Positions 36,944 through 63,122 of a DNA stretch of 64,000 nt are shown here, piece after piece. A model generated the notes under the pieces. The model worked only from the letters and a program-made list of their open reading frames with translations, was not told the DNA's origin and searched no databases. The translations under genes and the position numbers were made by a program. Location: NCBI GenBank assembly GCA_049672825.1, contig JBATWU010000032.1, forward strand, positions 7,794 to 71,793, written 5' to 3'. This DNA comes from Pusillimonas sp. Its GTDB lineage: Bacteria; Pseudomonadota; Gammaproteobacteria; Burkholderiales; Burkholderiaceae_B. Positions within the stretch are counted from its first letter, which is position 1. Each line of letters begins with the position of its first letter.

Positions 36944-37154
36944 TGTCCAGCCTAAAGGCGCCTTGTTGGGGCGACGACAGAATGTCGAGTACGACTTCCG
37001 ATGGCCGACATAGACGTACGCCAAGCCCTGTAATCACGAACGGACGATTAATCAGGATCGGATGAGCCAACATGGCATCCAATAACTGATCATCTGTCAG
37101 GTCGAGGTTATCCAGGCCGAGCTGCGCATAGGGCGTACCCTTGTGTACCCTCAT
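36891..37154 (-). pseudogene. arsC: Truncated glutaredoxin-type arsenate reductase (R773 ArsC family) lacking the catalytic N-terminus
   Basis: The 87-aa ORF aligns with about residues 60-122 of E. coli ArsC: GTPYAQLGL...LTDDQLLDAMLAHPILINRPFVITGLGVRLCRPSEVVLDIL. The N-terminal ~55 aa with the HNPxCGTS catalytic Cys are absent. Its ATG overlaps the acr3 stop (ATGA). The last ~20 aa are non-homologous and run antisense into the AraC gene, 36891-36943. Confidence 0.7.
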
Positions 37155-38221
37155 CCTGCTTTGGCTTCATACCAGCCCTTTGAGCGATTTACGACGCGAA
37201 CCACGACCAGCATAATCGGCACCTCGATGAGCACGCCGACTACCGTGGCGAGCGCCGCACCCGATTGAAAACCGAACAGGCTGATCGCGGTAGCTACCGC
37301 CAGTTCGAAGAAATTGCTGGCGCCGATCAGGGCGGACGGCCCCGCCACACAATGGGCCACGCCGAACCGGCGATTCAGGTAATAGGCCAGGCCCGAGTTC
37401 AGTACGACCTGAATCAGAATCGGGATGGCCAGCAATAGGATAATCAGCGGCTTGTCAATGATGGCATTGCCCTGGAAGCCGAACAGCAGCACGAGCGTTG
37501 CCAGAAGCGCAGCAATGGAATAGGGACCTAATGCGCCGACGACGCGCCGATAGGTGGCTTCGCCCTTGGCAAGTAATGCCTTGCGTATGGCCTGCGCGAT
37601 GAGGACCGGGACAATGATGTACAGCGCCACGGAGGTGATAAGCGTATCCCATGGCACCGAGATCGAAGATAGCCCCAGCAGCAGCGCAACGACAGGCGCA
37701 AACGCCACGATCATGATGGCGTCGTTCAGCGCGACTTGCGATAGCGTGAAATACGGATCACCTTTGCAGAGCTGCGACCAGACAAAGACCATCGCGGTGC
37801 AGGGCGCGGCAGCCAGCAGAATTAACCCGGCCACATAACTGTCGAGCTGGTCCGCAGGCAGCCATGCCGCAAACAGATGCCGCACGAATAGCCAGGCCAG
37901 CAGCGCCATGGAAAAGGGTTTGACGAGCCAGTTTATGAATAGCGTTACGCCAATGCCGCGCCAGTGGCTTGTCACTTGCCCCATCGCGCCGAAATCAATC
38001 TTGATCAGCATGGGAACGATCATGACCCAGATCAGCAGACCCACCGGCAGATTGACTTGTGCCACCTCCAGCGCCGCGATGCCTTGAAACACGCCTGGCA
38101 TCGACTGGCCCAACAAAATGCCCGCAACGATACATAGAGCCACCCAAACGGTAAGATAGCGCTCAAAGAAACCAATGCCCCCACCCTGCGAAACGGCGGC
38201 CGCTTGTGCCACTGACTTCAT
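37151..38221 (-). CDS. acr3: ACR3-family arsenite efflux permease
   Basis: 356-aa ORF, about 10 TM. N-terminal block GFFERYLTVWVALCIVAGILLG and APCTAMVFVWS motif. Confidence 0.95.
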   Translation of the reverse strand: MKSVAQAAAVSQGGGIGFFERYLTVWVALCIVAGILLGQSMPGVFQGIAALEVAQVNLPVGLLIWVMIVPMLIKIDFGAMGQVTSHWRGIGVTLFINWLVKPFSMALLAWLFVRHLFAAWLPADQLDSYVAGLILLAAAPCTAMVFVWSQLCKGDPYFTLSQVALNDAIMIVAFAPVVALLLGLSSISVPWDTLITSVALYIIVPVLIAQAIRKALLAKGEATYRRVVGALGPYSIAALLATLVLLFGFQGNAIIDKPLIILLLAIPILIQVVLNSGLAYYLNRRFGVAHCVAGPSALIGASNFFELAVATAISLFGFQSGAALATVVGVLIEVPIMLVVVRVVNRSKGWYEAKAG

Positions 38222-38730
38222 TCTTGGGATTCCAAGGGCTGTTGACCGATCGCCCGCATTTGCGTTTGAATGGCGTTGCGATCCAGGATATGAAGCGGCA
38301 GGTTCTCAAACTGGCTGACGCGAGCCATGATTTGCCGGAAAACTTTGTTGAAAAGCGCACGCTTTTCCTCATCGCTACCCTCGAACGCGGCAGGGTCTTG
38401 AAACCCCCAGTGCGCCGTGATGGGCTTGCCTGGCCATACAGGGCAGGTTTCGCCCGCCGCTTGATCGCAAACCGTCAGGACAAAATCCATTTGGGGCGCA
38501 TCGGGCGCGGCAAACTCATCCCAGCCTTTGCTGCGCAGGGCGGAGGCGTCGTAGCCAATCGCCTCGCATCGCTCCACTGCGAAGGGGTTCACCTTGCCCG
38601 TTGGTTGGCTGCCAGCGCTATAGGCGCGAAAGCGCCCTTTGCCCAGCACATTGAAAAGCGCTTCGGCCATGATGCTTCGCGCTGAATTGCCAGTGCAAAG
38701 CACCAGCACATTGAAAGTTTTATCAGACAT
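38218..38730 (-). CDS. arsC: Arsenate reductase, LMW-PTPase (thioredoxin-coupled) type
   Basis: P-loop VLCTGNSARS at the N-terminus. 170 aa. 4-nt overlap with acr3. Confidence 0.9.
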   Translation of the reverse strand: MSDKTFNVLVLCTGNSARSIMAEALFNVLGKGRFRAYSAGSQPTGKVNPFAVERCEAIGYDASALRSKGWDEFAAPDAPQMDFVLTVCDQAAGETCPVWPGKPITAHWGFQDPAAFEGSDEEKRALFNKVFRQIMARVSQFENLPLHILDRNAIQTQMRAIGQQPLESQE

Positions 38731-38775
38731 GACGGGTTATCAGCTTGAGGTCGAAAGGGTGTGGGTTAATCGGGC

Positions 38776-39273
38776 TTAGCAACAAGACGGTTCGGGCTTA
38801 CTGCATGCATTTTCTGCTTTGGGCGGCGTAGCAAAAGAGTTTGGCTTGGAGGTGCAGCACGCGCTATCTGCGTCTAATGCCTGGCGGGATTGGCCATAGG
38901 TTGCTGCGCTTTCCAGCGTATGGAATGATTCCCAGGCAACACCCTGGGGGTCGATGGACCAGTACTTATCAGACTTGGCGTAGCAGCAGGTTGTATTGTT
39001 TTGCTGCTCCACAGGCAGGCTCGCGCTTGCCAGTCGCGCTTGAATTTCCGCCAGCTCGGCATCGTTCTCGACTTGAATGCCAAGGTGGTCCACACCCAGC
39101 TTGGCAGGCGCTGTACCCAGGGATGAAATGGCAAAATTCACCCGTGGATCTTCAAGCGCCCATTTTGCATAGTCTGATTTGACGATAGTGGGCTCTGCTG
39201 CAAATAACGCCGAGTAGTAGCGGATGCTGGCGGGCAGATCGGCTACGGCGACATGGACATGAAAGCGTTTCAT
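38776..39273 (-). CDS. arsI: ArsI/CadI-family glyoxalase-fold metalloenzyme (candidate C-As lyase)
   Basis: 165 aa. His5, His63 and Glu115 sit at the positions of the ArsI Fe(II) triad. The vicinal pair Cys96-Cys97 (TTCCYAK) sits at the ArsI substrate-binding position. Cys-rich C-terminal tail. Confidence 0.8.
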   Translation of the reverse strand: MKRFHVHVAVADLPASIRYYSALFAAEPTIVKSDYAKWALEDPRVNFAISSLGTAPAKLGVDHLGIQVENDAELAEIQARLASASLPVEQQNNTTCCYAKSDKYWSIDPQGVAWESFHTLESAATYGQSRQALDADSACCTSKPNSFATPPKAENACSKPEPSCC

Positions 39274-39605
39274 GATGAGGGCTCCGAGGTGATGTCACAG
39301 TTGCTTATGGGAGAGCATGGATTGCCGCCGCAGCAGTTCTCCGTCAGGTAAGCAAGCAGGTCATTCATCGTCTCGTAGCGCGCCGAATAAATGATTGACC
39401 GCCCATCCTGGCGACTAGCGAGCAATCCGGCTCGATACAGTTCTTTTAAGTGAAAGGACAATGACGATGCCGGCATGTTCATCAACTCGGCGATACGGCC
39501 TGCCGGCAAGCCCTCTGGCCCTGCTTGCACCAAGGTGCGAAAGACCGACAGGCGGATTGAGTGAGCTAGGGCGGCAAGCGCCTCAAGTGCGTTATTTGTT
39601 TCCAT
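39270..39605 (-). CDS. arsR: ArsR/SmtB-family metalloregulator
   Basis: wHTH block PAGRIAELMNMPASSLSFHLKELYRAGLL. C-terminal CCGGNPC triad (C91, C92, C97), like C-terminal As(III)-site ArsRs. Confidence 0.9.
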   Translation of the reverse strand: METNNALEALAALAHSIRLSVFRTLVQAGPEGLPAGRIAELMNMPASSLSFHLKELYRAGLLASRQDGRSIIYSARYETMNDLLAYLTENCCGGNPCSPISNCDITSEPSS

Positions 39606-39761: not shown

Positions 39762-39976
39762 TCATTGAAGGCCGCAGATCACACCTTCCACGCCATTGCC
39801 CGGCCTGGTCTTCATCCTGAGCCTACCGGCCAGACGCGCCATGAGATCCATGCGCTCATGAAGAATCGCCACGATCAGCGCAGGCGCACCTGCGCATCGC
39901 CCTATTGTTTGCGCGTGCAGCGGATGATCCCGCGCATATCGTCTTCGGCCTGCGCCGTGAGCAGATAGGCCGTCAC
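39762..39976 (-). pseudogene. Decayed ParE/RelE-type toxin remnant
   Basis: GTG at 39976 overlaps the stop of the upstream 70-aa ORF (GTGA). It reads VTAYLLTAQAEDDMRGIIRCTRKQ, then TAG where ParE proteins have Trp, then GDAQV. A second frame downstream reads ALIVAILHERMDLMARL, a typical ParE C-terminus. The total length is too short for an intact toxin, which implies an internal deletion plus a frame change. Confidence 0.45.
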
Positions 39977-40185
39977 ACCACGAAGTGTTCATGCGAGGCC
40001 CGTTCGAACCATTTCCGCACCGCCAGCCAGTGAGGATCGCCGTACAGGCGGCGAAATCGTCGGGTTTCCTCCGACTGTTCGTTGCGCCAAACGCCCAAGC
40101 GCAGTTCCACATACTGCGGGGTGAGCGCAATCCCACATTCGACGGTGATGCAATGGTGCCATTGTTCAGATGTACGGGGGATCAT
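39973..40185 (-). CDS. Hypothetical 70-aa Trp-rich protein (family not recognised); position fits an antitoxin and/or a gene divergent from the Zur box
   Basis: ORF MIPRTSEQWHHCITVECGIALTPQYVELRLGVWRNEQSEETRRFRRLYGDPHWLAVRKWFERASHEHFVV. Its stop overlaps the ParE-remnant start. Confidence 0.4.
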   Translation of the reverse strand: MIPRTSEQWHHCITVECGIALTPQYVELRLGVWRNEQSEETRRFRRLYGDPHWLAVRKWFERASHEHFVV

Positions 40186-40237
40186 GAGTGCCTCCTGCCA
40201 ATGATTATCATTGCCATCCCTTCAATCATTAATGGTA

Positions 40238-40252
40238 TGTTATAACATAACA
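40238..40252. promoter_or_regulatory. Zur box (zinc uptake regulator operator)
   Basis: TGTTATAACATAACA is an exact match to the TGTTAT-N3-ATAACA palindrome reported for beta/gamma-proteobacterial Zur (recalled as TGTTATDNHATAACA). It lies in the divergent intergenic region upstream of the first COG0523 gene. Confidence 0.7.
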
Positions 40253-40449
40253 TTTAAAGGCTGGGAAACCCATGTGAACTACGAGATAAGACCATGAACG
40301 TCTGACAAATGGCCGCGCATTCGAATTTCGCCGCGCGGTCATTGAAGTGCATGGCAAATGCTCCAGTTGCTGTGCGATTGAACGGGGCGGTCAATGCTGA
40401 TGCGGCTGGGCGCCAACAGTTTTTTTCTTATGACTTTAGATACCGAGCG

Positions 40450-41679
40450 ATGAACCTACCTACTTTTCAACCTGACTCTCGATTGCCCGTCACTGTCCTC
40501 TCCGGTTTTCTCGGCGCAGGCAAAACCACGCTGCTCAACCACATTCTGAACAACCGCGAGGGACGGCGCGTGGCGGTCATCGTCAACGACATGTCCGAGG
40601 TCAATATCGACGCCGCGCTGGTGCGCGAGGGCGGAGCCGAACTGTCCCGCACCGACGAGAAGCTGGTCGAAATGAGCAACGGCTGCATCTGCTGCACCTT
40701 GCGCGAAGACCTGCTGCTTGAAGTGGACCGTCTGGCCAAGGAGGGCCGATTCGACCAGCTCGTCATCGAATCCACCGGCATTTCCGAACCCTTGCCGGTC
40801 GCCGAAACTTTCACCTTCGAGGGAGAAGACGGCCGCAGCCTGGCCGAGGTGGCTCGCCTGGACACCATGGTGACGGTGGTCGATGCCTACAACTTCTTGC
40901 GCGACTACGGTTCGCGTGACAGCCTGCAAGCGCGCGGCGAATCCATGGGCGAAGAAGACGAGCGCACCGTGGTGGATCTGCTGATCGAACAGATCGAGTT
41001 TTGCGACGTCCTTGTGCTCAACAAGGTGGATTTGATCGACGAGCAAGCGCGTGAACGGTTGATGGCAATTCTGCGCACGCTGAACCCCAGGGCGTGCATC
41101 GAGGTGGCCGAGTTCGGCAAGGTGCCGCTGGATCGCGTGCTGGACACGGGCCTGTTCGATTTCCAGGAAGCGTCCAAGGCGCCCGGATGGCTGCAGGAAC
41201 TGCGCGGCAACCATACGCCCGAGACCGAGGAATACGGTATTCGCAGCTTCGTCTACCGCGCGCGCCGACCATTTCATCCGCAACGCTTCCATGACTATGT
41301 CGCAAGCGAATTGCCGGGCGTGGTGCGTTCCAAGGGCTTTTACTGGCTGGCAAGCCATCCGACACTGGCCGGCTCCTGGTCGCAGGCCGGCGCCATTGTT
41401 CGGCATGGCCCGGCAGGCTACTGGTGGGCGGCCATGCCGCCGGAGCGCTGGCCGCAGGACCCGGAAACTGTCCGTCTGATCCGCGAAAAATGGGACGACC
41501 GTGTGGGTGACGCGCGCCAGGAGCTGGTGCTGATCGGCATGGATATGGACGAGCGCGCGCTGCGCGCGCACTTCGATGCCTGTCTGCTGACCGAGGGGGA
41601 AATGGCCGTCGGTCCGGAGGTCTGGCAGCAGTGGCACACCCCCTTCGAACAGTGGCCCGAACGTCAACCCGCATTCTGA
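40450..41679 (+). CDS. COG0523-family G3E GTPase (ZigA/YeiR/CobW-like zinc metallochaperone)
   Basis: Start at [33 protein letters not shown] (Walker A); an upstream alternative is ATG 40309. CxCC motif GCICCTL. CobW C-terminal domain. Confidence 0.9.
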
Positions 41680-41692
41680 GTCATTCCCAAGC

Positions 41693-42190
41693 ATGATGGC
41701 ATCTTCGCAACCGCAACTGGATATTGATCAAGACGCGATCCAGACTGAGCTGGTTCAGGCCTTCGCTTGCCTGCCCGATTGGCCGCAGCGCTACCAGTAC
41801 CTGATCGATCTGGGCAGGACGCTGCAGGGGTTTGCGCAAGCGTATCGGATCGACCGATACAAGCTGCGTGGCTGCCAAGCCAGTGTCTGGCTGAAGCCTG
41901 AGTGGCGGGATGGCCGCATTTACTTCACCGGCACAAGCGACTCCCTCATCGTTGCGGGCTTGATGGCGCTCTTGTTTCGTCTCTATTCCGGCAGAACTTT
42001 TTCTGACGTGTTGACGGCCTCCCCCTGGTGTCTCAAAGAAATGGGGCTGCATCATCATTTATCGCCTCAGCGGGCGACGGGCCTGGCCGGCATGGTCGAG
42101 CGCATGCGTGAATTCGCCGTGCAATGCAGCCGGCCGGCATCTATCAACACTATGGATACACCCAGCAGGTTGGGGCACGCCGCCAACTGA
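41693..42190 (+). CDS. sufE: SufE-family sulfur acceptor protein
   Basis: Blocks LPDWPQRYQYLIDLG and the conserved Cys context KLRGCQASVWL. Confidence 0.85.
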   Translation: MMASSQPQLDIDQDAIQTELVQAFACLPDWPQRYQYLIDLGRTLQGFAQAYRIDRYKLRGCQASVWLKPEWRDGRIYFTGTSDSLIVAGLMALLFRLYSGRTFSDVLTASPWCLKEMGLHHHLSPQRATGLAGMVERMREFAVQCSRPASINTMDTPSRLGHAAN

Positions 42191-42303
42191 TCGAGCATAA
42201 ATTGGATACCGTACTTACCGACCTTCCCGATGCTTCAATCGCGCATAGCCAGCGCAGCGAAGCCTGCGTCGCCGTGACGCTGGCGTCTCAGGCACCGACC
42301 CGC

Positions 42304-43444
42304 ATGAACCATCCTGCCTCCACTCTCATACCCGTTACGCTGCTCACCGGCTTTCTGGGCAGCGGCAAGACCACAGTGCTCAACCACCTGGTACGCCAGA
42401 CCGAATTGGCCGACGCGTTGGTCATCATCAATGAGTTCGGTGAAATCTCCCTGGACCACCTGCTGTTCACCCATAGTGCCGAAAACCTTGTCATGGAAAT
42501 GAGTAGCGGCTGCCTGTGCTGCACCATCCGGGGAGATTTGGTCAAGACGCTATCGGACATGACTTGGCGCTTCTCGCGTAACGGACAGCGCCAGTTCAAC
42601 CGCGTGGTGATCGAAACCACGGGCCTGGCCGACCCGGCCCCAATCGTTCACACGCTGATGACCCACCCGCAGGTGGTCAACCGATACCGCCTGGACGGCA
42701 TCGTGACAACCCTTGATCTGGCCACCGGCAACGCCACCCTGAACCGCCACGTAGAAGCCGTGCGCCAGGCCGCGATCGCCGATTGCCTGCTGCTCACCAA
42801 AGCAGACATGGTGGACACCGAGACGCGCGATGCGTTCCTGCGCCGGCTCGACGCCATCAACCCGGCCGCGTCGCGCTGGGAGGTGCGCCACGGCGAAATC
42901 GCGGCGACCAAGGTGCTGGATCTTGGACTGTTCTCGACCGAGGGCAAGGCGCCCGACGTCGAGCGCTGGCTGCGCGAGGAAGCATACGCGGACGACACGC
43001 ATCGCCATGATAAGGAAGTCGGCCATGCCCATGCCCACCATCATGAGGATGAGCATCATCGTGACCATGACGGCCATGGTCACGAGGCCCATCGCCACGA
43101 TGTCAATCGCCACGACGATCACATCCGCGCATTCTGCTTCGCAGTGGACGAACCAATTCCCGAAGACCTGTTGGCCGCCTGGCTGGAGGTGCTGATGAGT
43201 TTCGTCGGAGAGAACATCCTGCGCGTCAAGGGTATCCTGAACATCGAGGGGAGCGACCAGCCGGTGGTCATCCACGGTGTGCAGCATATTTTTCATCCAC
43301 CCGCGACACTCCCGGCGCTGGCCCAGCGCGGATCGGCGCTCGCGGCTGGTGTTCATCACCCGGGATGTGAGCCGTCAAAATATCGAAGACACCTTCCGGG
43401 CCTTTCGCGATGTCTTGCCCCAGCTGCGGGAGGCGGCCGCATGA
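42304..43444 (+). pseudogene. Second COG0523 GTPase with His-rich insert; apparent 1-nt frameshift near 43318
   Basis: Start at MNHPASTLIPVTLLTGFLGSGKTTVLNHLV. CxCC motif GCLCCTI. His-rich stretch HRHDKEVGHAHAHHHEDEHHRDHDGHGHEAHRHDVNRHDDH. After ...FHPPATLP the canonical C-terminus (R)[42 protein letters not shown]-stop is encoded in the +1 frame, with TGA at 43442-43444. The as-written frame instead reads through into cysS, giving the 910-aa ORF 42124-44856. Confidence 0.7.
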
Positions 43445-44856
43445 TGCCCGCCATCCATTTGTACAACACCTTGACGCGAAGCAAGGAGTCGCTGCGCACC
43501 ACAAGCCCGGATCACGTCACGATGTACGTGTGCGGCCCGACCGTCTACAACTACGCGCATCTGGGCAACGCGCGGCCGGCCGTGGTCTTCGACGTGCTCG
43601 CCCGACTGCTGCGTCACGTCTACCCGCATGTCACCTATGCGCGCAACTTCACCGACGTGGACGACAAGATCAACGCGGCAGCGGCGGCGGCAGACGTGCC
43701 CATCGGCGCAATCACGGCACGCTACATCGACGCTTACCACGAAGACATGCACGCCTTGGGCGTGCTGGCGCCGGATCTGGCGCCCCGCGTCACCGAGCAC
43801 ATACCGGCCATCATCGATCTCATCCGCATCTTGATCGCACGCGGGCACGCCTATGAAGCCCAAGGGCATGTGCTGTTCGACGTAGCCTCTTTTCCGGAAT
43901 ATGGGCGCCTGTCCGGGCGCAGGCCCCAGGACATGATGGCCGGTGCGCGCGTGGAAGTCGCGCCCTACAAGCGCAATCCCCTGGATTTTGTATTGTGGAA
44001 GCCGTCCACGCCTGAGCTGCCTGGGTGGGACAGCCCCTGGGGACGCGGGCGCCCCGGCTGGCACATCGAATGCACGGCCATGATCGGCCAGCACCTGGGC
44101 CAGACGCTCGACATTCATGGCGGAGGCCAGGACCTGATCTTCCCGCACCACGAAAACGAAATCGCTCAGGGTACGTGCGCCCACGGCGTCCTGTACTGCC
44201 GTACCTGGGTTCACAACAGCTTTGTCACCGTCGATGGACAGAAGATGTCCAAATCACTGGGCAATGTATTGCTAGTCCGCGATTTGTTAAAACTTGCGCC
44301 CGGCGAGGCCATACGGCTTGCGCTGTTGTCTTCGCACTACCGCCACCCCTTGGATTGGACCGACGAACGGCTGACTAATGCGTGCCGCACTTTGGTTCGT
44401 TTTTACCGCGCGCTTGAAAAGACAGCGCACATCGAGGCCGCTGAGGGCGTAGGGCCTGATGAGGAAGTGTTCGCTGCATTGGCCAATGACATCAATACAC
44501 CGGCGGCACTTGCTCGGCTGCACCAGTTAGCGAGCGAGCTGGAGCGGGCGTCGTCCGATAACGTGCGCATGAACCTGAAGGCTCGCCTGCTCTACTCCGC
44601 CCGCTTGCTCGGCTTGCTGCAGGCCGATGCTGCGCGCGCGGTCGCCGACCTGCAGGGCTATCAAGCCTTGCCCACGTCGGACGTCATCGATGCCGCCTGG
44701 GTAGAGCAGTTAATTGAGCAGCGCACACAGGCCCGCGCGCATAATGATTTTGCCCGCGCCGATGTCCTGAAGAGGCAGTTGGAAGATGCCGGAATCACAG
44801 TGCAGGACTCAACCGAGGGCACCACTTGGCGAGTCGGAATGGAGGCCGTCTTATGA
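43441..44856 (+). CDS. cysS: Cysteinyl-tRNA synthetase
   Basis: Starts [19 protein letters not shown]-type motif [10 protein letters not shown]. Zn-ligand contexts [18 protein letters not shown] and [18 protein letters not shown] are retained. KMSKS motif is present. The ATG overlaps the +1-frame stop of the COG0523 gene (ATGA). Confidence 0.9.
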
Positions 44857-45098
44857 TCCTCGGCCGCATCCTCATCCTCCTCATTCGCGGCTATCAGCTT
44901 GGCATCAGCCCGTTGATGGGCAGGAGTTGCCGCTTCCATCCTTCATGTTCGCAGTACGCCATCGAGGCGTTGCGCGCGCAGGGGGCGTTGCGGGGGATGT
45001 GGCTGACCGTCTGCCGGGTCGGGCGCTGCCACCCTTGGCATTCAGGCGGCCACGACCCAGTGCCGCCGAGACGTGGAGCGGGGAAACTGCCTCGATGA
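44853..45098 (+). CDS. yidD: YidD-family membrane protein insertion efficiency factor
   Basis: [52 protein letters not shown] overlap with the cysS stop. Confidence 0.85.
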
Positions 45099-45192
45099 TC
45101 CGTGCGCCAAATCCTGTCCACCCTGAAACAGAGACCGATACGCCATGAAACCATCCTGTTGATTTTTCCATTTTGCTCACAAAGGAGCCCTC

Positions 45193-45339
45193 ATGAAAGT
45201 TCTCTCCTCTTTGAAAGACGCCAAAACGCGCCACCGCGATTGCCAGGTCGTGCGCCGCCGCGGCCGTATCTACATCATCTGCAAGTCCAATCCGCGTTTC
45301 AAGGCCCGCCAGGGCGGCGCCAAAAACAGGAACGCCTGA
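45193..45339 (+). CDS. rpmJ: Ribosomal protein L36, C-minus (YkgO/type B, zinc-independent) paralogue
   Basis: This 48-aa ORF is not in the ORF track: [48 protein letters not shown]. It closely resembles E. coli YkgO ([41 protein letters not shown]...). AAAGGAG lies upstream. Confidence 0.9.
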
Positions 45340-46460
45340 TGCACCGCCTGGATGTCGCCATCGTCGGTGCTGGTGCTGCCGGGATCGGCATGGCCCTGGC
45401 GCTGCAGAAAGTACCGGGGCTGAAGTACGGCGTACTGGAGGCCGGGCGCGTCGGCGAGTCGTTCCGGCGCTGGCCGGCGCAGACCCGCTTTATCACGCCG
45501 TCCTTTCACAGCAACCCCTTCGGCCTGGCTGACCTGAATGCCGTGAACGAGCCCAGCTCGCCGGCGATTCACGCGGGCGCCGAGCATCTGAGCGGCCCCC
45601 AATACGCCGAGTACCTGGCCTTCATCGCCAAGGGTCATGAGCTACCTATCGCCAGCGATTGCAAGGTGGAAGCGGTGGCGGCGGTGACAGGTGGCGGCTT
45701 CATCCTGGATACCTCGAAGGGCAGGCTGCAGGCGGGTTTCTTGGCCTGGGCGACGGGCGAGTACCAGTTTCCCGATCTGGCTCCTTTCCCGGGGGCCCAA
45801 TGGTGCGCGCACTACGCCCAAGTCGCCGATTGGGCGGCCTTCAAGGCCCGCCGCTATACCGTGATCGGCGGCTACGAGAGCGGCGTGGACGCGGCGGTCA
45901 ACTTGGTCAAGCTCGGGCGCAAGGTACGCCTACTTGCGCGCAAGTCCACGTGGGATCCGCAAGGCCCGCACGACCCGAGTCTGTCGCTCTCACCCTACAC
46001 CCGGCAGCGGCTCTACGAGGCGGTCGATACCGGCAGGCTGGAGATTCTGTTCGGGGTCGACGTGATCGGGGTGACGCAGAACGAAGGCGGTGTTTTCCGT
46101 ATCCACGCAGGCGATGGCCGGTATTGGGACGAGAAACAGGCGCCGATCCTGGGAACGGGATTCGTCAAAGGCGGCGGTGCCCAGCAGATCGCCGAACTCT
46201 GGGGCTGGGACGAGGATGGCCGCGTAATGCTGTCCGAAGCCGACGAATCGACCATCACCCCGGGCCTCTTCCTGGTCGGTCCGCAGGTACGCCACGATAA
46301 GCGCATCTACTGCTTTATCTATAAGTTCCGCCAGCGCTTCGGCTTGATCGCGGACAGCATCGGCCAGTGCCTGGATCGGGACACGAGCGCATTGAAAACC
46401 GGCGCCGGCGCCTGGGGGCCCTTCGGCAACAGCGAATGCTGCGAGGGCTGCGAATGCTGA
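45339..46460 (+). CDS. FAD/NAD(P)-binding pyridine-nucleotide-disulfide-type oxidoreductase with Cys-rich C-terminal tail
   Basis: Start at [22 protein letters not shown] (GxGxxG), sharing one base with the rpmJ stop (TGATG). A second dinucleotide fold lies at YTVIGGYESGVDAA. The C-terminus is ...NSECCEGCEC. Confidence 0.8.
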   Translation: MHRLDVAIVGAGAAGIGMALALQKVPGLKYGVLEAGRVGESFRRWPAQTRFITPSFHSNPFGLADLNAVNEPSSPAIHAGAEHLSGPQYAEYLAFIAKGHELPIASDCKVEAVAAVTGGGFILDTSKGRLQAGFLAWATGEYQFPDLAPFPGAQWCAHYAQVADWAAFKARRYTVIGGYESGVDAAVNLVKLGRKVRLLARKSTWDPQGPHDPSLSLSPYTRQRLYEAVDTGRLEILFGVDVIGVTQNEGGVFRIHAGDGRYWDEKQAPILGTGFVKGGGAQQIAELWGWDEDGRVMLSEADESTITPGLFLVGPQVRHDKRIYCFIYKFRQRFGLIADSIGQCLDRDTSALKTGAGAWGPFGNSECCEGCEC

Positions 46461-47515
46461 CCGTCCTCAAGAACATTGTCCGACCATCGTGGGTTTCCGT
46501 ACTGCTGGTCGCCAGCATTCTCGGCGGTGCGGTCGTGGGCCACCAGTGGCCGGTGGCGGGCGAGGCGCTGCGCGATTACGTGGACGGCACTCTGCTGGCG
46601 CTGGTCGTGCTGCTTTTCTTCGGCGTGCGCTTCGAGGCCGTCGTGCGCGCCTGGAGCAACTTGCGCTTTCTGGGTCTGGCCCTGCTTGCCACTTACCTTT
46701 TTGTTCCCGTCATCAGCTACGCCATTGCCTCGGTCGCGTTGTCGGCATACCCCCTGTTCATGGTCGGGCTGGTGATCTACTTCATGTCGCCCTGCACGGA
46801 CTGGTTCCTGGGTTTCACGCGACTGGCGGGCGGCAACGTGGCCCTGGGCACGGCCCTCATCCCGATCAATATGATGGTGCAGCTTCTGCTGTATCCGGTC
46901 TATCTCTATCTTTTCACGCGCAGTGCCGTTCCTATCCAGGCCGACGTCATCGGCAGCACGCTGCTGCACTGGTTTCTCGTGCCGTTCGCCGTGGGGGTGG
47001 CGGCCCATTACCTCCTGCGCCGCCTGCTGGCCGCCGAACGGTTCGATCGTCTGCTGCGCTGGGTCGACCTGGCAACACCCTGGGTCATCGCACTGCTGGT
47101 GGTGGAGATCTTCGCCGGCAACATCGCCGTCATCCTCCAGCACAGCGCCGTGTTCGGCTGGGTACTGCTGGCGGTATTCGTCTTCTTCGTCGCCACCTTT
47201 TTGCTCGGCGAGGCGATGAGCCGCCTGGGCCGGCTCGCCTATCCCGAACACGCCCTGCTGACCATGACCGTCGCGGCCCGCAACGCCCCGTTGATGCTCG
47301 CCGTGACCATGGTCGCGTTGCCGAATCAGCCGCTGGTGTATGCCGCCATCGTCATCGGCATGCTGGTGGAGTTTCCCCATCTCACGCTATTGCAGCGGGT
47401 GCTGCTTGGCCGGCGCGGCCAACACGAGCACGTCGACTCGCCTGGCTCAATACCAACCCCGCATGCCATGGCGTCAAACGAGCCGCCACGCAATTTACCC
47501 TCAAAGAACCCATGA
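46454..47515 (+). CDS. Multi-TM permease of the ACR3/bile-acid:sodium symporter (SBF-like) superfamily, substrate unknown
   Basis: Start at MLTVLKNIV overlaps the upstream stop (ATGCTGA). About 10 hydrophobic segments. The block FMSPCTDWFLGFTRLAGGN resembles the ACR3 APCTAMV region. Confidence 0.7.
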   Translation: MLTVLKNIVRPSWVSVLLVASILGGAVVGHQWPVAGEALRDYVDGTLLALVVLLFFGVRFEAVVRAWSNLRFLGLALLATYLFVPVISYAIASVALSAYPLFMVGLVIYFMSPCTDWFLGFTRLAGGNVALGTALIPINMMVQLLLYPVYLYLFTRSAVPIQADVIGSTLLHWFLVPFAVGVAAHYLLRRLLAAERFDRLLRWVDLATPWVIALLVVEIFAGNIAVILQHSAVFGWVLLAVFVFFVATFLLGEAMSRLGRLAYPEHALLTMTVAARNAPLMLAVTMVALPNQPLVYAAIVIGMLVEFPHLTLLQRVLLGRRGQHEHVDSPGSIPTPHAMASNEPPRNLPSKNP

Positions 47516-47757
47516 TCCGTAAGAATCCCCGCGGCGACCCGACGGACCTGGCCAGCTTTCCCCGCACCTCGGCCGACGCTAGCGAATTCTCCGAAGACGT
47601 GGCGCGCACCAACAACAGTCTGGTGCTGGGATACAAGACTATCCAAAACGAACTCCGAGCCGCCATGAACGACATCGCTCCCGATACGCTCGTAGCCCAG
47701 CCGTTCGACGGCACGGGGATAGGTGGTTTATTCGATGAAGTCATTCACGATGCTTAA
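47512..47757 (+). CDS. Hypothetical 81-aa acidic protein, translationally coupled on both sides
   Basis: [85 protein letters not shown] overlap with the permease stop. Its own stop lies 8 nt inside the next gene. No family recognised. Confidence 0.4.
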   Translation: MIRKNPRGDPTDLASFPRTSADASEFSEDVARTNNSLVLGYKTIQNELRAAMNDIAPDTLVAQPFDGTGIGGLFDEVIHDA

Positions 47758-49165
47758 CGACCTGGACATTGCCGATCGGCTGGGCCGCCGCCATGCCGAT
47801 CTTTGCGTGACGGGCGCCACCGTCATGACGCCCAGCGGTCGCACGATGTGCGATGTGGTCTGCCTGGCTGGTCGCATCGTGGCGCTGGACGCCACCGGGT
47901 GGACCGCAGACACCACTCTCGATGCGGCGGGCCTGCATGTGCTGCCCGGAGTGATCGACAGCCAGGTTCACTTCCGCGAGCCCGGACTCACGCACAAAGA
48001 AACCTTCGAGGCGGGTACGCGCGGCGCGGCGCTGGGCGGCGTGACCGGTGTTTTCGAGATGCCCAACACGAATCCGCTGACGCTGACGGTTGACGACTTG
48101 CAGGCCAAGCTCGACCGCGCCCAAGGCTGCGCCTGGTGCGACTACGCCTTCTACATCGGCGGCTCGGCGGTGAACGCGGAGCAGCTCGCCGAGCTGGAGC
48201 GGCTGCCCGGCTGCGCGGGCGTCAAGGTCTTCATGGGCAGTTCTTTCGGCGATCTCCTGGCCGACGACGAAGACGTGCTGCGCCGGATCGTGCGCCATGG
48301 CCGCCGCCGCATGGCGGTGCACGCCGAGGATGAGGCCCGGCTGCGCGAGCGCAAGATTTTGGTGCAGGAAAGCGGCGACGTGCGCGACCATCCCGCCTGG
48401 CGCGATGTAACCAGTGCCCTGGCGGCCACCCAGCGCATCGTTCGCCTGGCGGCCGAGGTGGACCGCCGGCTGCACATCCTGCACGTCTCCTCGGCAGAGG
48501 AAATGGCCTTCCTGGCGGCGCACAAGCACCGCGTCAGCGTGGAGGCCACGCCGCACCACCTGACCCTGGCCGCACCGGACTGCTATGAGCGCCTGGGCAG
48601 CTTTGCCCAGATGAATCCGCCGGTGCGGGAGCCGCACCACCGCGAAGCCCTATGGCAGGCGGTGCGAGACGGCGTGGTGGACGTGCTGGGCAGCGACCAT
48701 GCGCCGCACACCTTGCAGGAAAAGGCGCAGCCTTATCCGCAGTCGCCCAGCGGCATGACCGGCGTGCAGACCTTGGTGCCGATCATGCTCGATCATGTGC
48801 ATGCGGGCCGGCTCAGCCTGGAACGGCTGGTGGATCTCACCAGCGCAGGGCCGGCCCGCATCTTCGGCCTGGCGGGCAAGGGGCGCATTGCGCTCGGCTA
48901 CGACGCCGACCTGACGCTGGTCGATCTGAAGGCCCGCCGAGAGATTACCAACCGCTGGATTGCCAGCGTGGCGGGCTGGACACCTTACGACGGCGTACGA
49001 GTGACAGGATGGCCGATAGCCTCCGTGGTGCGCGGTCATGTCGTAGTGCGGGATGAAACCTTGGCCGGACAACCGTTGGGCGGCCCCCTTGCATTCCTGG
49101 AGGCGGCGTCGCCCCAGGGCCACGGGTCTTTACAAGGGCCGGCCGGAACCGGGGGAACATCATGA
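47750..49165 (+). CDS. Dihydroorotase/allantoinase-like cyclic amidohydrolase paralogue
   Basis: Start at [11 protein letters not shown]. Motifs: [13 protein letters not shown] (canonical D-x-H-x-H with Gln in place of the first His), [29 protein letters not shown] and GSDHAPH. Confidence 0.85.
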
Positions 49166-49329
49166 ACGATAGCGGCGAATTGAAACGCGCGGGGCTGAAA
49201 GCGACGCTACCGCAGCTGCGGATATTGGACCTGTTCGAGGAAACGGACCAGCGACACCTGTCGGCAGAGGATGGTTATCGTCTTCTGCTGGATAAGAACG
49301 TGGAGAGTGCGAGCATTGGCACCTCATGA
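49162..49329 (+). pseudogene. Fur-family regulator, N-terminal 55-aa fragment only
   Basis: This ORF is not in the ORF track: [55 protein letters not shown]-stop. It aligns with E. coli Fur residues ~8-55 (LKKAGLKVTLPRLKILEVLQEPDNHHVSAEDLYKRLID). The recognition helix, dimerisation domain and metal sites are missing. ATGA overlap with the upstream stop. Confidence 0.6.
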
Positions 49330-49354
49330 CACCATTGACGACAAGGAGGTCAGC

Positions 49355-49891
49355 ATGACCACTCAAACCGATACCCCTTCGCCCGCCGATAGTGTGGCCG
49401 GGCACGATACTACGACGGCTGTGCGTTTTGCCGCTAGGACTTCGGTCGAACAAGTTGAAGAAGGTACCGCACTGGCACCCAAGTTCGACCGCGACGGGCT
49501 CATCCCCTGCGTGACCACCGATGCCGATACCGGGGAGGTGCTGATGTTGGGCTACATGAACGCCGAAGCCCTACACATGACGATCGAAACCGGTGCGGCG
49601 CATTATTGGAGCCGGTCACGCCAGACGGTGTGGCACAAAGGCGCCACCAGTGGGCTGGTGCAGGCGGTCGAGGAATTGCGCATTGACGACGACCAGGATG
49701 CCGTCTGGCTGCGCGCGCGGGTGGCCGGCTCGGGCGCAAGCTGCCATGTGGGGTATCGGTCCTGCTTCTATCGGCGCGTTCCGATCGGAAACGAACGCAC
49801 GCAAGGCGATGCGCTGGTCTTCAGGGAAGCCGACAAAAAATTTGACCCTAAACAGGTCTACGGCGATGCGCCAAATCCCACTATTCTGTGA
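49355..49891 (+). CDS. hisI: Phosphoribosyl-AMP cyclohydrolase (HisI) paralogue
   Basis: ATG follows AAGGAGG. PRA-CH core [80 protein letters not shown]. The canonical DCDxD reads DDDQD here. Confidence 0.9.
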
Positions 49892-50024
49892 ACATAGACA
49901 ATGGCGAGCGCGTCCGGATGGATTTCGCGAGTCGCTGCTCGCTATAGCGGGCAGATATCCACACCCTTGGAGAGTTCCCAATGAACAGATTTGATTCCTA
50001 CTGGCATGGAGGCATGCTGGCAAA

Positions 50025-50228
50025 ATGACCTATGATCCCAATAACATCTTTGCCAAGATTCTACGCGGTGAAGCGGCTGGCCAGACCGTACCGCATTGTC
50101 ACTTCCACGTCATCCCGAGAGGACCGGACACGATGTTCCGTGACCATGCGGCTGTTCCTGCTCAACCAGAGGCGCTAGAAATAGTCGCCGAGCGAATTCG
50201 GGCCTGCCTACAGGCCGATACTGCGTGA
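50025..50228 (+). pseudogene. HIT-family (histidine triad) gene with large internal in-frame deletion
   Basis: The 67-aa ORF MTYDPNNIFAKILRGE|AAGQTVPHCHFHVIPR... joins the HIT N-terminus directly to the HxHxH motif region. About 70 residues of the expected core are absent. Confidence 0.6.
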
Positions 50229-50668
50229 GGTCAGATGCCGGCACTTTGCTCGTTCAATGCACCGCGCATCGCCAGCAAGGTTTCGTTCTTAATCGTAGCG
50301 ATCAGTGCTTGAGCTTTTTGGGTGACCGCCACCATTTCTTCGGCCGGTTCGGGCTCATTCCCCGTTTATGGGGAAGAGCTGCAAGTCCTTGTTTTCGCGA
50401 TGGAAATGGGGCTTGGTGAGACGGGGTGGGAATAGGATATGGTGGCTGGGGCGGAATCTGATTGATGGCCGGGAAGCACGTAGAGACGTGCTTTTCCGGA
50501 CTTATGTGAACTGCGGGGTACAAGCTGGGGTACAAGTGCAAAAAAACAACAAAACTGGCCTGCGGTTCGATCTCTATGTCGGATTCGAGCAGTGGGATCA
50601 GTCAGGTGTTCTCGGCACGCAACGCAGTGAGGTCATTGCGAGTTTCCATCAAATATCTGCATCTCCAT

Positions 50669-51862
50669 TCACATGTCGTTCGTCGATTCGCTACCACGCT
50701 TGATTCTCCGTACTTCTAATTCCCGTCGTGTTTTGTCCAGCTCCTCGGCCAGCAGCTTTTCATCCGGCAGCGCCGTCCGGTATTCAGCTGTCAGCACTTT
50801 GTTGGATAAACCCTCCAGCGTATAGTGGGCCTCGTTGCTGCCTTTGCCTGCACACAGGATCAGCCCTATAGGTGGGTTTTCGCCAGGTTTCATCCAATGT
50901 GTTCGTGCGTAATTCAGGTACATGTGCATTTGACCGGCATCGGCGTAACTAAACTGGCCGACTTTGAGATCAATAACCAGCAAACATTTCAAACTGCGGT
51001 GAAAGAACAAGAGGTCGATACGAAACCAACTATCGTCCAGGCGCAGGCGCCGCTGACGGCCGACAAAGGCAAAATCGTCTCCTAGCTCCAATAAGAAGTC
51101 GGCTAAATGCTGGATCAGTGCCTCTTCAAGGTCGGACTCAGAATACTCGTCCTTGAGATTGAGAAACTCCAGCACGAACGGGTCTTTAATTGCCTGTTCG
51201 GGCGTGATGACATCACCAGGTGCGGCTACCTCACCCTTTTCCAGCATCGCAGTCTTGTTGTGCGATAGGGCGGTGCGCTCGTAAAACTGGCTGTTCACTT
51301 GCCGGTCGAGCTGGCGCACTGACCAACCGCAACGTAGCGTCTCGGTTTCGTAGAAAGCACGGGCCTGTGGATTCTTGACCGAGAGTAGGCGCACGTAGGC
51401 TGACCATGGCAGCGGGAAAGCCTTGGCTAGAGAGGCGAGGTCGATGGAATTCCGAGTCGCCGTTCCGGAATTTCTAGCAGGTACAGAATTGCCGGAAATT
51501 GCCTGGCGAATTAGAGGAAGCGTGAATTGCGCAGACACTGTCTGCGCAATCTGGTCAGTTGGCCAAGCTAGATAAAACAGTCGCATTTGTTCGAGGTTTC
51601 GCTTGGAAAAACCACGACCAAAGCGAGCACTCAAGTCGGTTGCCAGCCGCACCATCAAGGCCTCGCCGTAGTGGGCCCGTTCCTGCCCGCCCTGTTCGAA
51701 TTCCACAATACGACGACCAATTTCCCAATAGCTGGCGGTCATTAACGAATTGACGCTACGTGCGGCGGCACCGCGGGCGGAATCCAGCAGCGTGACGATG
51801 TCGGTGTGGACTGCTGCGTAAGCGGCCTGATTAGACACGGCGGGCGTGCTGTGGTCGTTCAT
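50669..51862 (-). CDS. DUF1016/YhcG-family PD-(D/E)XK nuclease-fold protein
   Basis: 397-aa ORF. N-terminal helical region: YWEIGRRIVEFEQGGQERAHYGEALMVRLATDLSARFGRGFSKRNLEQMRLFY. C-terminal nuclease core: IDLLFFHRSLKCLLVIDLKVGQFSYADAGQMHMYLNY. Confidence 0.85.
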   Translation of the reverse strand: MNDHSTPAVSNQAAYAAVHTDIVTLLDSARGAAARSVNSLMTASYWEIGRRIVEFEQGGQERAHYGEALMVRLATDLSARFGRGFSKRNLEQMRLFYLAWPTDQIAQTVSAQFTLPLIRQAISGNSVPARNSGTATRNSIDLASLAKAFPLPWSAYVRLLSVKNPQARAFYETETLRCGWSVRQLDRQVNSQFYERTALSHNKTAMLEKGEVAAPGDVITPEQAIKDPFVLEFLNLKDEYSESDLEEALIQHLADFLLELGDDFAFVGRQRRLRLDDSWFRIDLLFFHRSLKCLLVIDLKVGQFSYADAGQMHMYLNYARTHWMKPGENPPIGLILCAGKGSNEAHYTLEGLSNKVLTAEYRTALPDEKLLAEELDKTRRELEVRRIKRGSESTNDM

Positions 51863-51984
51863 ACCTGCTCCTTAGACATAGCATTATTTTGCACGACCCT
51901 TGCCTCATATGGGGCGGCATCCAATTGGCACTGTGCAGGGTCCGTACTATCAATAAAAATTAAAGCAAACAATAGCACCTTGGC

Positions 51985-52281
51985 CTAGCTGGAAAATGCC
52001 TTGTTCCGTTCAATGAGCGCATGCAGGCTGGCTGCTGTGATGCCGCTGGACCGCTTGCCTATCTTGATGAGTACCAGCTCGCCTTCGTTGACTAACCGAT
52101 AGATGGTTGATCGGGACACCCCAAGTTTCGCCTCTGCTGTGTGAATGCGATACAGAAGTGCCTGGTCGGATTGCTGCAGGGCTTGATGTCCGGTTGACGG
52201 GTAGCCAAAGATGTTTGGCAGGGTCTGTTCCTTCATTTCTTCCTCCATTAAACCTTGGGAAACATCCTGAGCGGTAATCAC
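51985..52281 (-). CDS. AlpA/excisionase-type (HTH_17) small DNA-binding protein
   Basis: HTH block AEAKLGVSRSTIYRLVNEGELVLIKIGKRS. The start is uncertain; internal Met codons lie near 52248-52236. Confidence 0.7.
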   Translation of the reverse strand: MITAQDVSQGLMEEEMKEQTLPNIFGYPSTGHQALQQSDQALLYRIHTAEAKLGVSRSTIYRLVNEGELVLIKIGKRSSGITAASLHALIERNKAFSS

Positions 52282-52813
52282 CCAAGATGCTTTCCAAAGC
52301 AGGCGCGGTCAGCGCCTTCGTGACTGGTCCGCCAAGATGCAGCGATGGAAACCAGTTGCTTGGATCATTTTCGGTAGAGCCCGCCGCTGACCCACTATCG
52401 TGGTTCGTCGGGTTGCTGAAAACTGCGGTCTTTGCCGCTGTCATCAATGGATTACGCGCCATCCATCGAATGTGGCCTGCCTTTGGCAGTACCGGCGTCC
52501 GTAGTTACGGATCGTCATCTACTTCCCCCGGTTTATGCCAGTCGCTACCGGCCCAAGAGAGAAATGATTTTTCACCTGCTTTACTCCTACCCAGGTGCTT
52601 ATCGCCCCGCATGATGCCGGCGACACGGGTAGCCGCGCACTCGCACCGCCCGTTGTAGGGCAGGGCGCGGTATTCATCGGTGTCGTGTTGTTAAAGAGCA
52701 GGCTTGTAGCAATCATTACGTATCTACTTGCTATAGTCAATATGTAAGTAATAATAAATAGTCGTGTAGAAGACTAAAAGCTCAAGAAAACCGAAAAATC
52801 TGCTTTGGAGTGA

Positions 52814-52854
52814 CACAAAAAGAATCGCCCTGGTTCGCTATGGAACCCAGGGCG
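52814..52854 (-). terminator. Intrinsic terminator downstream of the XRE gene (hairpin could act bidirectionally)
   Basis: The plus strand reads CGCCCTGGTTC-gctatg-GAACCCAGGGCG, an 11-12 bp stem with one bulge. On the minus strand it is followed directly by ATTCTTTTTG. On the plus strand a T-run follows about 10 nt later. Confidence 0.6.
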
Positions 52855-52928
52855 GTTCGGGTATTTTTATTGTTTGTTTTTGTATCTTGGGTGATAGCTG
52901 AGGACTCAATCCACTAGGTCGTCGGTGC

Positions 52929-53303
52929 TCAATCGTGGTCTTTGGTGCGTTTGGCTTGTTGCCCGATCTTCATCTTTATGTAGTCACCGATATCTTCCAG
53001 TACGGGGGCAGGCAGTTCCTCCAACGTATACCTAGAGGTTTCCGGCCATGGCCATTCCATCTCAAACATCTCTCCCTTGCCAGTGACAAGCCATTCAGCA
53101 CGAACGTGAAGGGCTGCCGCAATCCAAACGATGTGACGGGAAGTCTCGTTGCGACCGTTTTCAATATGGGCGATAGCACTTTGGCTTATAGGGGGGTCGA
53201 GGAGGTTGGCCAATGCTTCTTGGGATAGGCCGCGCTTCTTACGTGCGGCAAGTAAGCGTTCGCCTATGCTGCTTGTAGGACTCGGCGTCATGGAATTCTT
53301 CAA
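52929..53303 (-). CDS. XRE/Cro-CI family HTH regulator
   Basis: HTH_3 block IGERLLAARKKRGLSQEALANLLDPPISQSAIAHIENGRN. The C-terminal ~55 aa belong to no recognised domain. Confidence 0.8.
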   Translation of the reverse strand: MKNSMTPSPTSSIGERLLAARKKRGLSQEALANLLDPPISQSAIAHIENGRNETSRHIVWIAAALHVRAEWLVTGKGEMFEMEWPWPETSRYTLEELPAPVLEDIGDYIKMKIGQQAKRTKDHD

Positions 53304-53651
53304 TTGGTGGATGCATTGTTGGTGAGTTGTAAGTGTATATGTAATTTAAAAACATTGCTTGTCTAATATGAATTCAACCGTATTCTATTAGGTAAGTAAT
53401 CATAATGGGCTATTGTGACATTTAATGATACGGCGTGAGAGGAAAGAATGGTCAAGAGTATGACTATTCACTTGCCAGTGAGTTGTATCACTTTTTGATA
53501 GTAGGGACGCGATTTTTCTACCCCGAGACAGCTAGGGTATAAATATGAGTGGGGCTGAAAGATAGCCCATCGGTGCTTAATATGCTCTGCTAAGGCGAGC
53601 AGCACGGAAGGCTTTTTTACGGCCGGCAGTTAAGCTAGCGGCTGTCTAGAC

Positions 53652-56371: not shown

Positions 56372-56431
56372 AATATCGGACTCCTCTTGTCACGCACTGG
56401 CATATTATTAATGCTGCGCCACAGCCAGAGC

Positions 56432-56851: not shown

Positions 56852-56852
56852 T

Positions 56853-62094: not shown

Positions 62095-62174
62095 GCCTCA
62101 AAGGCCAGAGAACAAAAATATGCTGGCGTTCATTTCATAACAATTTCATATCGCGCATCAATGAATAAAAAAAA

Positions 62175-63117: not shown

Positions 63118-63122
63118 GGTGT

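Follow-up and report, generated by a model that had tools for sequence, protein, structure and literature searches.

A probable zinc-starvation gene cluster, partly eroded, behind a Zur-type operator in Pusillimonas sp.

Bacterial gene clusters in which a Zur-regulated COG0523 GTPase (YciC/ZigA) stands together with paralogues of zinc enzymes were described by Haas et al. (2009, BMC Genomics 10:470). Common to the class is a Zur box followed by a subfamily-1 COG0523 gene and then by paralogues of PyrC2, Cam, FolE2, CysRS and HisI, as in the yciC-folE2-queD2-cam-pyrC2 string of Burkholderia cenocepacia/cepacia. A further example is the cobW1 operon Op0317f_1 of Cupriavidus metallidurans (cobW1, folE_IB2, cysS2, queD, allB and a carbonic anhydrase gene), for which repression by Zur was found by experiment and which is expressed only in zinc starvation or in a zur mutant (PMC10882993). 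Here we describe a locus of this kind in a 64,000-nucleotide (64-kilobase, kb) stretch of DNA from Pusillimonas sp. (contig JBATWU010000032.1 of assembly GCA_049672825.1), the whole of which we refer to as the window. A Zur-type operator at 40237-40253 heads a string of plus-strand genes and gene remnants that runs to 50228. In our judgment this string is likely to be an Alcaligenaceae (Castellaniella-like) version of the beta-/gammaproteobacterial zinc-starvation cluster, one that is eroding and that would be under classical Zur repression as one plus-strand message. The marks of the class are present, namely a Zur-type operator upstream, a subfamily-1 COG0523 protein with a CxCC motif, and paralogues of which some have altered metal ligands. 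The cluster is thus a member of the established Zur-box/COG0523/zinc-paralogue class, as the original prediction from the letters alone had recognized, and it adds little to the picture of the Zur regulon.

The operator region is defined by the 15-mer TGTTATAACATAACA (40238-40252, plus strand), which forms the core of a perfect 7-3-7 inverted repeat, ATGTTAT-aac-ATAACAT (40237-40253), and whose arms, TGTTAT and ATAACA, are exact reverse complements of each other. The 7-3-7 layout is that of proteobacterial Zur boxes. No other match to the 15-mer with up to three mismatches occurs in the 64-kb window, its own overlaps excepted, against 0.35 expected by chance, and a second Zur box was looked for in the window and before the type-B L36 gene and was not found. 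The perfect box of the original prediction is therefore borne out, both as an inverted repeat and as the sole site in the window. The identical 15-mer occupies the matching site in Castellaniella hirudinis (L154) and lies upstream of small-zur-znuCBA in Comamonas piscis (L155), and a near-identical box is found at the orthologous site in Bordetella genomosp. 10. When the divergent region around the box, which measures 264 base pairs in the window, is aligned over the four genera (the window, Castellaniella, Bordetella and Comamonas), the box is the sole conserved block, and this is good comparative evidence for a protein-binding site common to two divergent promoters. Near-identical box-like sites also precede relatives of the cluster at loci L087, L090/L091, L093-L095, L098, L099, L110 and L113, and the Zur sites that Haas et al. 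(2009) list for Bordetella avium and Chromobacterium are in agreement with it. Sequence and phylogenetic footprint together support the view that the box is a genuine Zur-type operator.

The box is common to the plus-strand cluster and to a divergent minus-strand gene (39973-40185), overlooked in the original prediction, that encodes a conserved protein of 70 amino acids (aa) and whose start codon lies 52 nucleotides (nt) from the box. Homologues of 57-86 aa occur in Castellaniella, Verticiella, Comamonas, Xylophilus and Pseudomonas, and they adjoin Zur boxes or zinc genes at L087, L089, L096, L098, L113, L117, L154 and L155. In Bordetella genomosp. 10 the homologue is divergent from a box-headed L36B-flavoprotein-SBF unit, in Burkholderia multivorans it stands beside hisI2, and in Comamonas piscis it opens the small-zur-znuCBA string, preceded by the identical 15-mer. 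The protein has no match in Pfam or NCBIfam. Its AlphaFold2 model is a confident four-helix fold (predicted local distance difference test score, pLDDT, 92), a fold search with this model gave no meaningful match in the PDB, and its invariant residues include W9, H11, C12, C17, Y48, G49, D50 and W53. It was this open reading frame (ORF), used as a query, that led to the Castellaniella hirudinis locus.

That locus (GCA_042651965.1, JBHSDY010000002.1) is the closest intact relative, and no description of it was found in the literature searched. Its order is small72/box/zur-zigA-sufE-folE2-cobW2-cysS2-yidD-L36B-flavoprotein-SBF-cam-hisI, it shares the box and the divergent small gene with the window, and its proteins are 71-98% identical to those of the window. 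It differs in that zur, folE2, cobW2 and cam are intact and in that the dihydroorotase (DHOase) gene, the Fur stump and the HIT stump, all discussed below, are absent. Comparison with Castellaniella identifies the 198 nt between the box and zigA as the remains of a deleted zur gene (40294-40400, plus strand). In a tblastn search with the 133-aa Castellaniella Zur, residues 100-132 match at 40296-40394 with 79% identity (E 1e-13); the start, ATGAAC at 40294, is followed by GTC TGA and then by the last ~33 codons, codons ~3-99 being deleted, and the DNA alignment to Castellaniella also spans the zur-zigA spacer. A riboswitch, sought in what had seemed a 200-nt leader, gave no match in an Rfam scan of the whole window, and a riboswitch leader before zigA was rejected because the leader is the zur relic.

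The original prediction passed over this relic and also a second one, which fills the 113-nt gap between sufE and cobW2. The latter (42202-42303, plus strand) consists of codons 1-16 and 203-221 of folE2, the gene for GTP cyclohydrolase IB; in a tblastn search with the 307-aa Castellaniella FolE2 the two segments match at 81% and 84% identity, respectively. It reads LDTVLTDLPDASIAHSQRSEACVAVTLASQAPTR and is in frame with cobW2. The cobW2 gene itself (42304-43444, plus strand) encodes the second, His-rich COG0523 GTPase, 78% identical to its Castellaniella orthologue; its family and place were predicted correctly, but the gene is split by a +1 frameshift at about 43318. Residues 1-337 of the 378-aa Castellaniella CobW2 match 42304-43317 and residues 338-378 match 43319-43441 in the next frame, so the CobW_C domain falls in two frames, and comparison with the B. 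multivorans cobW splits the gene of the window in the same way. The one extra base gives rise to a 910-aa ORF running into cysS (42124-44856), in which a 41-codon stop-free stretch links the folE2 stump and most of the COG0523 protein to the complete cysteinyl-tRNA synthetase (CysRS). A designed fusion of chaperone and client was considered for this ORF, which we judge to be an accident of the 41-codon stop-free stretch in DNA rich in guanine and cytosine (GC). The cysS gene keeps its own start codon and a GGGAGG ribosome-binding site.

Further remnants lie downstream. An 81-aa ORF (47512-47757, plus strand), which had been put forward as a new component of zinc metabolism, is instead the stump of cam, a gamma-carbonic-anhydrase gene. 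Its few database relatives are hexapeptide-repeat, carbonic-anhydrase-like proteins, and relative to the 186-aa Cam of B. multivorans and Castellaniella it retains residues 1-9 and 146-186 only. It has no Pfam or NCBIfam match and lacks the full left-handed beta-helix of ~186 aa. The stop codon of the relic is mutated from TGA to CGA, and the frame reads on to end over the DHOase start. What follows the mutated stop is seemingly the first codons of a deleted thrS, as judged by comparing the junction with L084 and L089, where the order is cam-thrS-DHOase; remains of ThrRS sought in the window gave no significant match, only a weak resemblance to the first codons. Between DHOase and hisI2 lies the N-terminal part, ~48 codons, of a Fur-type regulator (49162-49329, plus strand), which covers positions 2-44 of 121 in PF01475 and positions 4-49 of 148 in NF006999 (ferric uptake regulator). 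This stump is of the ferric-uptake type, not of the Zur type, and has an ATGA overlap with the DHOase stop. A remnant of zur was considered for it and rejected, since it fits the ferric-uptake-regulator model and has no similarity to the Zur proteins of Castellaniella and Comamonas. The string ends with the relic of a HIT-family gene (50025-50228, plus strand) whose middle is deleted; in its match to the HIT model, residues 12-32 correspond to positions 75-95 of 98, with 11 residues before them.

In the folE2, cam and HIT relics (42202-42303, 47512-47757 and 50025-50228) the deletions are internal and in frame, with both the original start and the junction to what follows preserved, and relics of this form may reflect selection for translational coupling to the next gene. 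In other metagenomes the cam paralogue (P0002, P0006, P0007 and P0009) has different internal deletions, one of them fusing cam to the N-terminus of an SBF permease, and at L085 thrS is in pieces (loci L084 and L085). It appears that such accessory genes have eroded repeatedly and independently. Contigs from run SRR28062772 agree with the window at 100% identity, and a contig of GCA_040394375.1 aligns to it without gaps at 99.68%. As two close strains (99.7% identity, 43 substitutions, no new insertions or deletions) share the relics from cysS onward, these are not artefacts of one assembler. Accessory clusters of this kind erode differently by lineage, having lost zur, folE2, cam and thrS here, cysS2 in Castellaniella, and cam and thrS in other metagenomes. 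Every ORF that the original prediction listed was found, in the order and with the families given (Pfam, NCBIfam), but its operon of 12 genes has to be reduced to nine intact genes, four of the listed ORFs being relics or frameshifted. The cluster is also not unusually large, as had been claimed, for the Castellaniella hirudinis and B. multivorans versions are equally long and more complete. The case is a warning that not every ORF in such a string is a gene.

The nine intact genes, all on the plus strand, are zigA, sufE, cysS2, yidD, the gene for type-B L36, the flavoprotein and SBF permease genes, and those for a PyrC2-type DHOase and HisI2. The product of zigA (40450-41679) is a COG0523 subfamily-1 zinc metallochaperone GTPase that scores 696 bits with NF038288 against a cutoff of 600, has both cobW and CobW_C domains and the metal motif GCICC (CxCC), and is 91% identical to Castellaniella ZigA and 84% identical to the ZigA of the B. 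cenocepacia chromosome-2 cluster. It is followed by sufE (41693-42190), encoding a SufE-family sulfur-acceptor protein (PF02657, 131 bits) that is 72% identical to the Castellaniella orthologue in the same position. The cysS2 gene (43441-44856; TIGR00435, 485 bits) encodes a CysRS paralogue 74% identical to the cluster copy of B. multivorans, and this enzyme retains all four zinc ligands of Escherichia coli CysRS (C28, C209, H234 and E238). Haas et al. (2009) likewise reported that zinc ligands are retained in CysRS paralogues. Next come a YidD-family gene (44853-45098; PF01809, 104 bits), which is probably a second copy, and rpmJ2 (45193-45339), encoding a type-B, cysteine-poor ribosomal protein L36 (NF002021, 93 bits, cutoff 70) that shares 98% identity with its Castellaniella counterpart. 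The 94-nt leader before the L36B gene resembles that of Bordetella genomosp. 10, without the box.

Two of the downstream enzymes show altered metal sites. The DHOase (47735-49165, with its start at 47735 or 47750; NF006559, PRK09060, 724 bits) has the motif DSQVH, with Gln at the first His position of the HxH metal motif, a feature also of its best PDB match, 2gwn. It shares 77% identity with the accessory PyrC2 encoded in the B. cenocepacia ZigA-FolE2-QueD-Cam-DHOase cluster, where there are two Zur boxes of the Burkholderia type. The hisI2 product (49355-49891; NF000768, 156 bits), 76% identical to Castellaniella HisI, is a "DDDQD" variant of phosphoribosyl-AMP cyclohydrolase. When it is aligned with the Methanothermobacter thermautotrophicus enzyme (1ZPS), the first of three aligned cysteines (DCD) is replaced by Asp and the other two are kept; in the M. 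thermautotrophicus enzyme these three cysteines are zinc ligands. The variant is present in 13 of 15 HisI matches from 14 fetched loci and the window, two of the 13 being other assemblies of the window locus.

No second copy of the cluster's enzymes lies in the 64-kb window. Indirectly, sequence comparison points to the cysS and pyrC of the cluster being accessory copies, because the DHOase is 77% identical to an accessory PyrC2 and because the Castellaniella cysS2 is N-terminally truncated. The latter (L154, 4630-5574) encodes 314 aa, is without the N-terminal third including the HIGH region and lies 64 nt from cobW2, and a paralogue that is intact in the window is thus dead in its closest relative. 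As a separate observation, CysRS, DDD-type HisI, SufE and YidD genes occur together at a gammaproteobacterial locus (L012, 10001-12551) and at other loci beside genes of a seemingly ordinary housekeeping kind, and the L012 group has no beta/gamma-type Zur box nearby. The linkage of these four may be due to something other than zinc.

The junctions are those of a tightly packed string. Every stop/start overlap quoted in the original prediction is present: ATGA at 43441, 44853, 47512 and 49162, TGATG at 45336-45340, ATGCTGA at 46454 and 8 nt at 47750-47757. Gaps of 94 nt (45099-45192) and about 133 nt (49892-50024) are also present. A consensus scan of the plus strand found no sigma-70-like promoter inside the cluster, and terminator-like matches inside it are no commoner than in shuffled sequence. 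The overlaps and the absence of internal promoter and terminator signals fit one transcript, and since the L36B leader is also without a box, read-through from 40253 would be the simplest model. Zinc-loaded Zur, if still encoded elsewhere in the genome, would bind the 7-3-7 repeat and block both divergent promoters; in the intact relative the plus-strand string starts with zur itself, which would provide autoregulation. Under zinc starvation the whole string would be made as one message and translated by coupling across the 1- to 8-nt overlaps. The predicted output is the ZigA metallochaperone, a zinc-free L36, a DHOase with His changed to Gln, a HisI with Cys changed to Asp and an extra zinc-type CysRS, with SufE, YidD and the flavoprotein/permease pair made in addition. 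If the genome encodes no other zur, expression of the cluster would be constitutive.

Several points weigh against a zinc-responsive single transcript. The cluster's own zur is destroyed and there is no other in the 64-kb window, so that zinc control is not to be assumed and depends on a zur elsewhere in the genome. A simple scan of the plus strand shows no sigma-70-like promoter at the box, and the 94-nt gap before L36B and the gap of about 133 nt before the HIT relic could hold promoters that are invisible to such a scan. Zinc sparing is no explanation for CysRS, because the enzyme retains all of its zinc ligands. An error of assembly may account for the frameshift at 43318; the independent contigs, those with the exact SufE or 81-aa protein, end short of this position. 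Finally, the role that we propose below for the flavoprotein and permease is a guess.

The loss of zur gives substance to another explanation, which we take seriously without favouring it: that the operator is an orphan. With no second zur the box would be unbound and the nine intact genes constitutive, and the decay of folE2, cam, thrS and cobW2 would follow. All that is left of zur here is ATG AAC GTC TGA and the last 33 codons, the window has no other Fur-family gene besides the 55-aa Fur-type stump, and Castellaniella and Comamonas keep zur at just this kind of locus. However, only 64 kb of the genome is in view, and in Bordetella species zur lies at another locus, as zur-COG0523-8 (Haas et al., 2009, supplement), so that a second copy is plausible; moreover, the box is still perfect, which suggests continued selection. 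With its operator intact and the adjoining repressor gene deleted, the locus offers a natural experiment on how regulation is lost.

It is also conceivable, and in our view unlikely, that the string is a recent fusion of several units of which only the first answers to the box. These would be box-zur-zigA-sufE-(folE2)-cobW2-cysS2-yidD, then L36B-flavoprotein-SBF-(cam), and then DHOase-(fur)-hisI. The L36B-flavoprotein-SBF unit of Bordetella genomosp. 10 does stand alone with its own box, the window has a 94-nt homologue of that Bordetella leader before L36B, without the box, and the Castellaniella string is without the DHOase gene and Fur stump. Yet Castellaniella has the same yidD-L36B-flavoprotein junction within one string, no plus-strand promoter-like site is seen in the 94-nt gap, and all other junctions overlap by 1-8 nt. 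That the whole is a dead cluster, a decaying field of pseudogenes in which the intact-looking ORFs have merely not yet been hit, strikes us as improbable to a still greater degree, even though 10 kb contain six deletion relics and a frameshift and there is decay among the relatives too (Castellaniella cysS2, the cam deletions of several metagenome proteins, and thrS at L085). Nine genes remain full length at 71-98% identity to their Castellaniella orthologues, the intact genes have a strong coding-type GC bias at third positions, the overlaps and the box are perfectly kept, and two strains 43 substitutions apart agree in structure from cysS onward, without any new insertions or deletions. We retain, as the likely reading, an eroding zinc-starvation cluster under classical Zur repression.

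More worth pursuing than the cluster itself are its conserved members of undescribed role. The flavoprotein gene (45339-46460, plus strand) encodes an FAD/NAD(P) flavoprotein (Pyr_redox_3; PF13738, 303 bits) to which, among solved structures, a putative flavin monooxygenase (3d1c) is nearest. Members of the family share 60-90% identity in beta- and gammaproteobacteria that range from Bordetella to Halomonas and Methylophaga, and the C-terminal tail, WGPFGNS[DE]CCE[GD]C[EQ]C, is invariant, including the four tail cysteines. The permease gene that follows (46454-47515, plus strand) belongs to the SBF/BASS-ACR3 superfamily (PF01758, 75 bits), and by curated cutoffs its product is neither ACR3 (acr3, 65 bits against 283) nor BASS (bass, 42 bits against 326). 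Relative to Castellaniella the flavoprotein is 90% and the permease 71% identical. The permease gene lies directly 3' of the flavoprotein gene at L087-L091, L094, L095, L097, L111, L113, L114, L116, L119, L126, L133-L135 and L154. The surroundings of the pair vary: a box and then L36B-flavoprotein-SBF in Bordetella genomosp. 10, FolE2-CysRS-YidD-flavoprotein-SBF-Cam-ThrRS-DHOase in B. multivorans, and box-FolE2-flavoprotein-SBF-ThrRS in Halomonas. A scan of metagenomes found a near-complete flavoprotein homologue at 49 loci, with an adjacent SBF gene at 13, a COG0523 gene within a few kb at 12 and a beta/gamma-type box no more than 3 kb upstream at 8; among flavoprotein contigs of at least 8 kb, 16 of 28 have a zinc-linked neighbour or box.

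SufE and YidD show similar associations. SufE genes stand beside zinc-cluster genes in Castellaniella and at L111 (SufE-flavoprotein-SBF-ThrRS-DHOase), L102 and L103, and beside CysRS genes at L004, L007, L012, L019 and L020. YidD is encoded directly 3' of CysRS in B. multivorans and Castellaniella; at L008, L012, L019 and L020 it lies no more than about 5 kb downstream of CysRS. SufE, YidD and the flavoprotein were not found in the zinc literature searched, and no paper found there deals with the permease or the 70-aa protein either. The suggestion in the original prediction that SufE, YidD, the flavoprotein and the permease are undescribed members of the system holds up, as they recur in zinc-linked clusters of other genera, and comparative genomics bears them out as real but uncharacterised zinc-cluster members across many lineages. 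As our best guess, a zinc-binding thiol compound would be moved or released by the flavoprotein/permease pair, and the CCxxCxC tail would serve as a metal-binding arm. We offer, tentatively and as a possibility that we would not call probable, the broader proposal that the flavoprotein, the SBF permease and the 70-aa protein, with SufE and YidD as further players, form a widespread Zur-controlled system of zinc acquisition or mobilisation. In one version of that system a zinc-binding thiol compound may be imported or exported and, by analogy with the C-terminal cysteine pair of mercuric reductase, the tail may hand off metal. If this is true, the YidD paralogue in the cluster predicts that YidD is a zinc protein. 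Since the flavoprotein/SBF pair, SufE, the second YidD and the 70-aa protein travel with Zur boxes and COG0523 genes in beta- and gammaproteobacteria, these conserved unknowns are candidates for further zinc-starvation responses.

Directly upstream of the zinc cluster, on the minus strand, is an arsenic-resistance operon (37151-39605) encoding an ArsR-family regulator (39270-39605), an ArsI/CadI-type enzyme (38776-39273), a thioredoxin-type ArsC (38218-38730) and an ACR3 efflux pump (37151-38221). Immediately beyond the HIT stump the GC content falls from about 63% to about 52% over 50300-64000, a stretch that opens with a YhcG/DUF1016 nuclease gene (50669-51862, minus strand) and small helix-turn-helix genes. 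The low-GC stretch is probably an inserted island, which may have cut short the zinc cluster at its 3' end on insertion. A scan for tRNA genes found none. A 2137-aa ORF at 4248-10661 (plus strand) begins VNRIYKTVWNEQTRTFVAVSELTRA, which we take to resemble the extended signal peptide of autotransporter or trimeric adhesins.

In the wider comparison, a plasmid collection yielded matches to zigA only and no sign of a plasmid-borne cluster, and a CysRS scan of a genome collection gave a best identity of 61% among the matches listed, closer relatives having been found by other routes. No Zur box was found in the B. multivorans locus L089 with either consensus type, and this locus is accordingly used here for synteny only. 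In Gram-positive bacteria, directly Zur-regulated oxidoreductases of unassigned role accompany COG0523 genes, including divergent pairs, in Corynebacterium glutamicum (cg0794/cg0795; PMC2823685) and in Staphylococcus aureus (HG001_02621-02624 and HG001_00792; PMC13586535), and these are likened to the flavoprotein of the window by description only, with no SBF partner or cysteine-rich tail reported for them. The C. metallidurans cobW1 operon resembles the window in being a long single Zur-controlled string with a second CysRS and a DHOase/allantoinase-type amidohydrolase. It differs in its operator, TGCAAC...GTTGCA, in having two boxes, in that no relics are reported, and in that a functional Zur is encoded elsewhere. 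Compared with the B. cenocepacia cluster, the window has folE2 and cam as stumps and no queD, and its box is of the Bordetella/gamma type (TGTTAT...ATAACA), not of the Burkholderia GATAT type. To that cluster the window adds SufE, YidD, type-B L36, the flavoprotein and the SBF permease, of which the first three are not mentioned by name (SufE, YidD, L36) in the main text of Haas et al. (2009).

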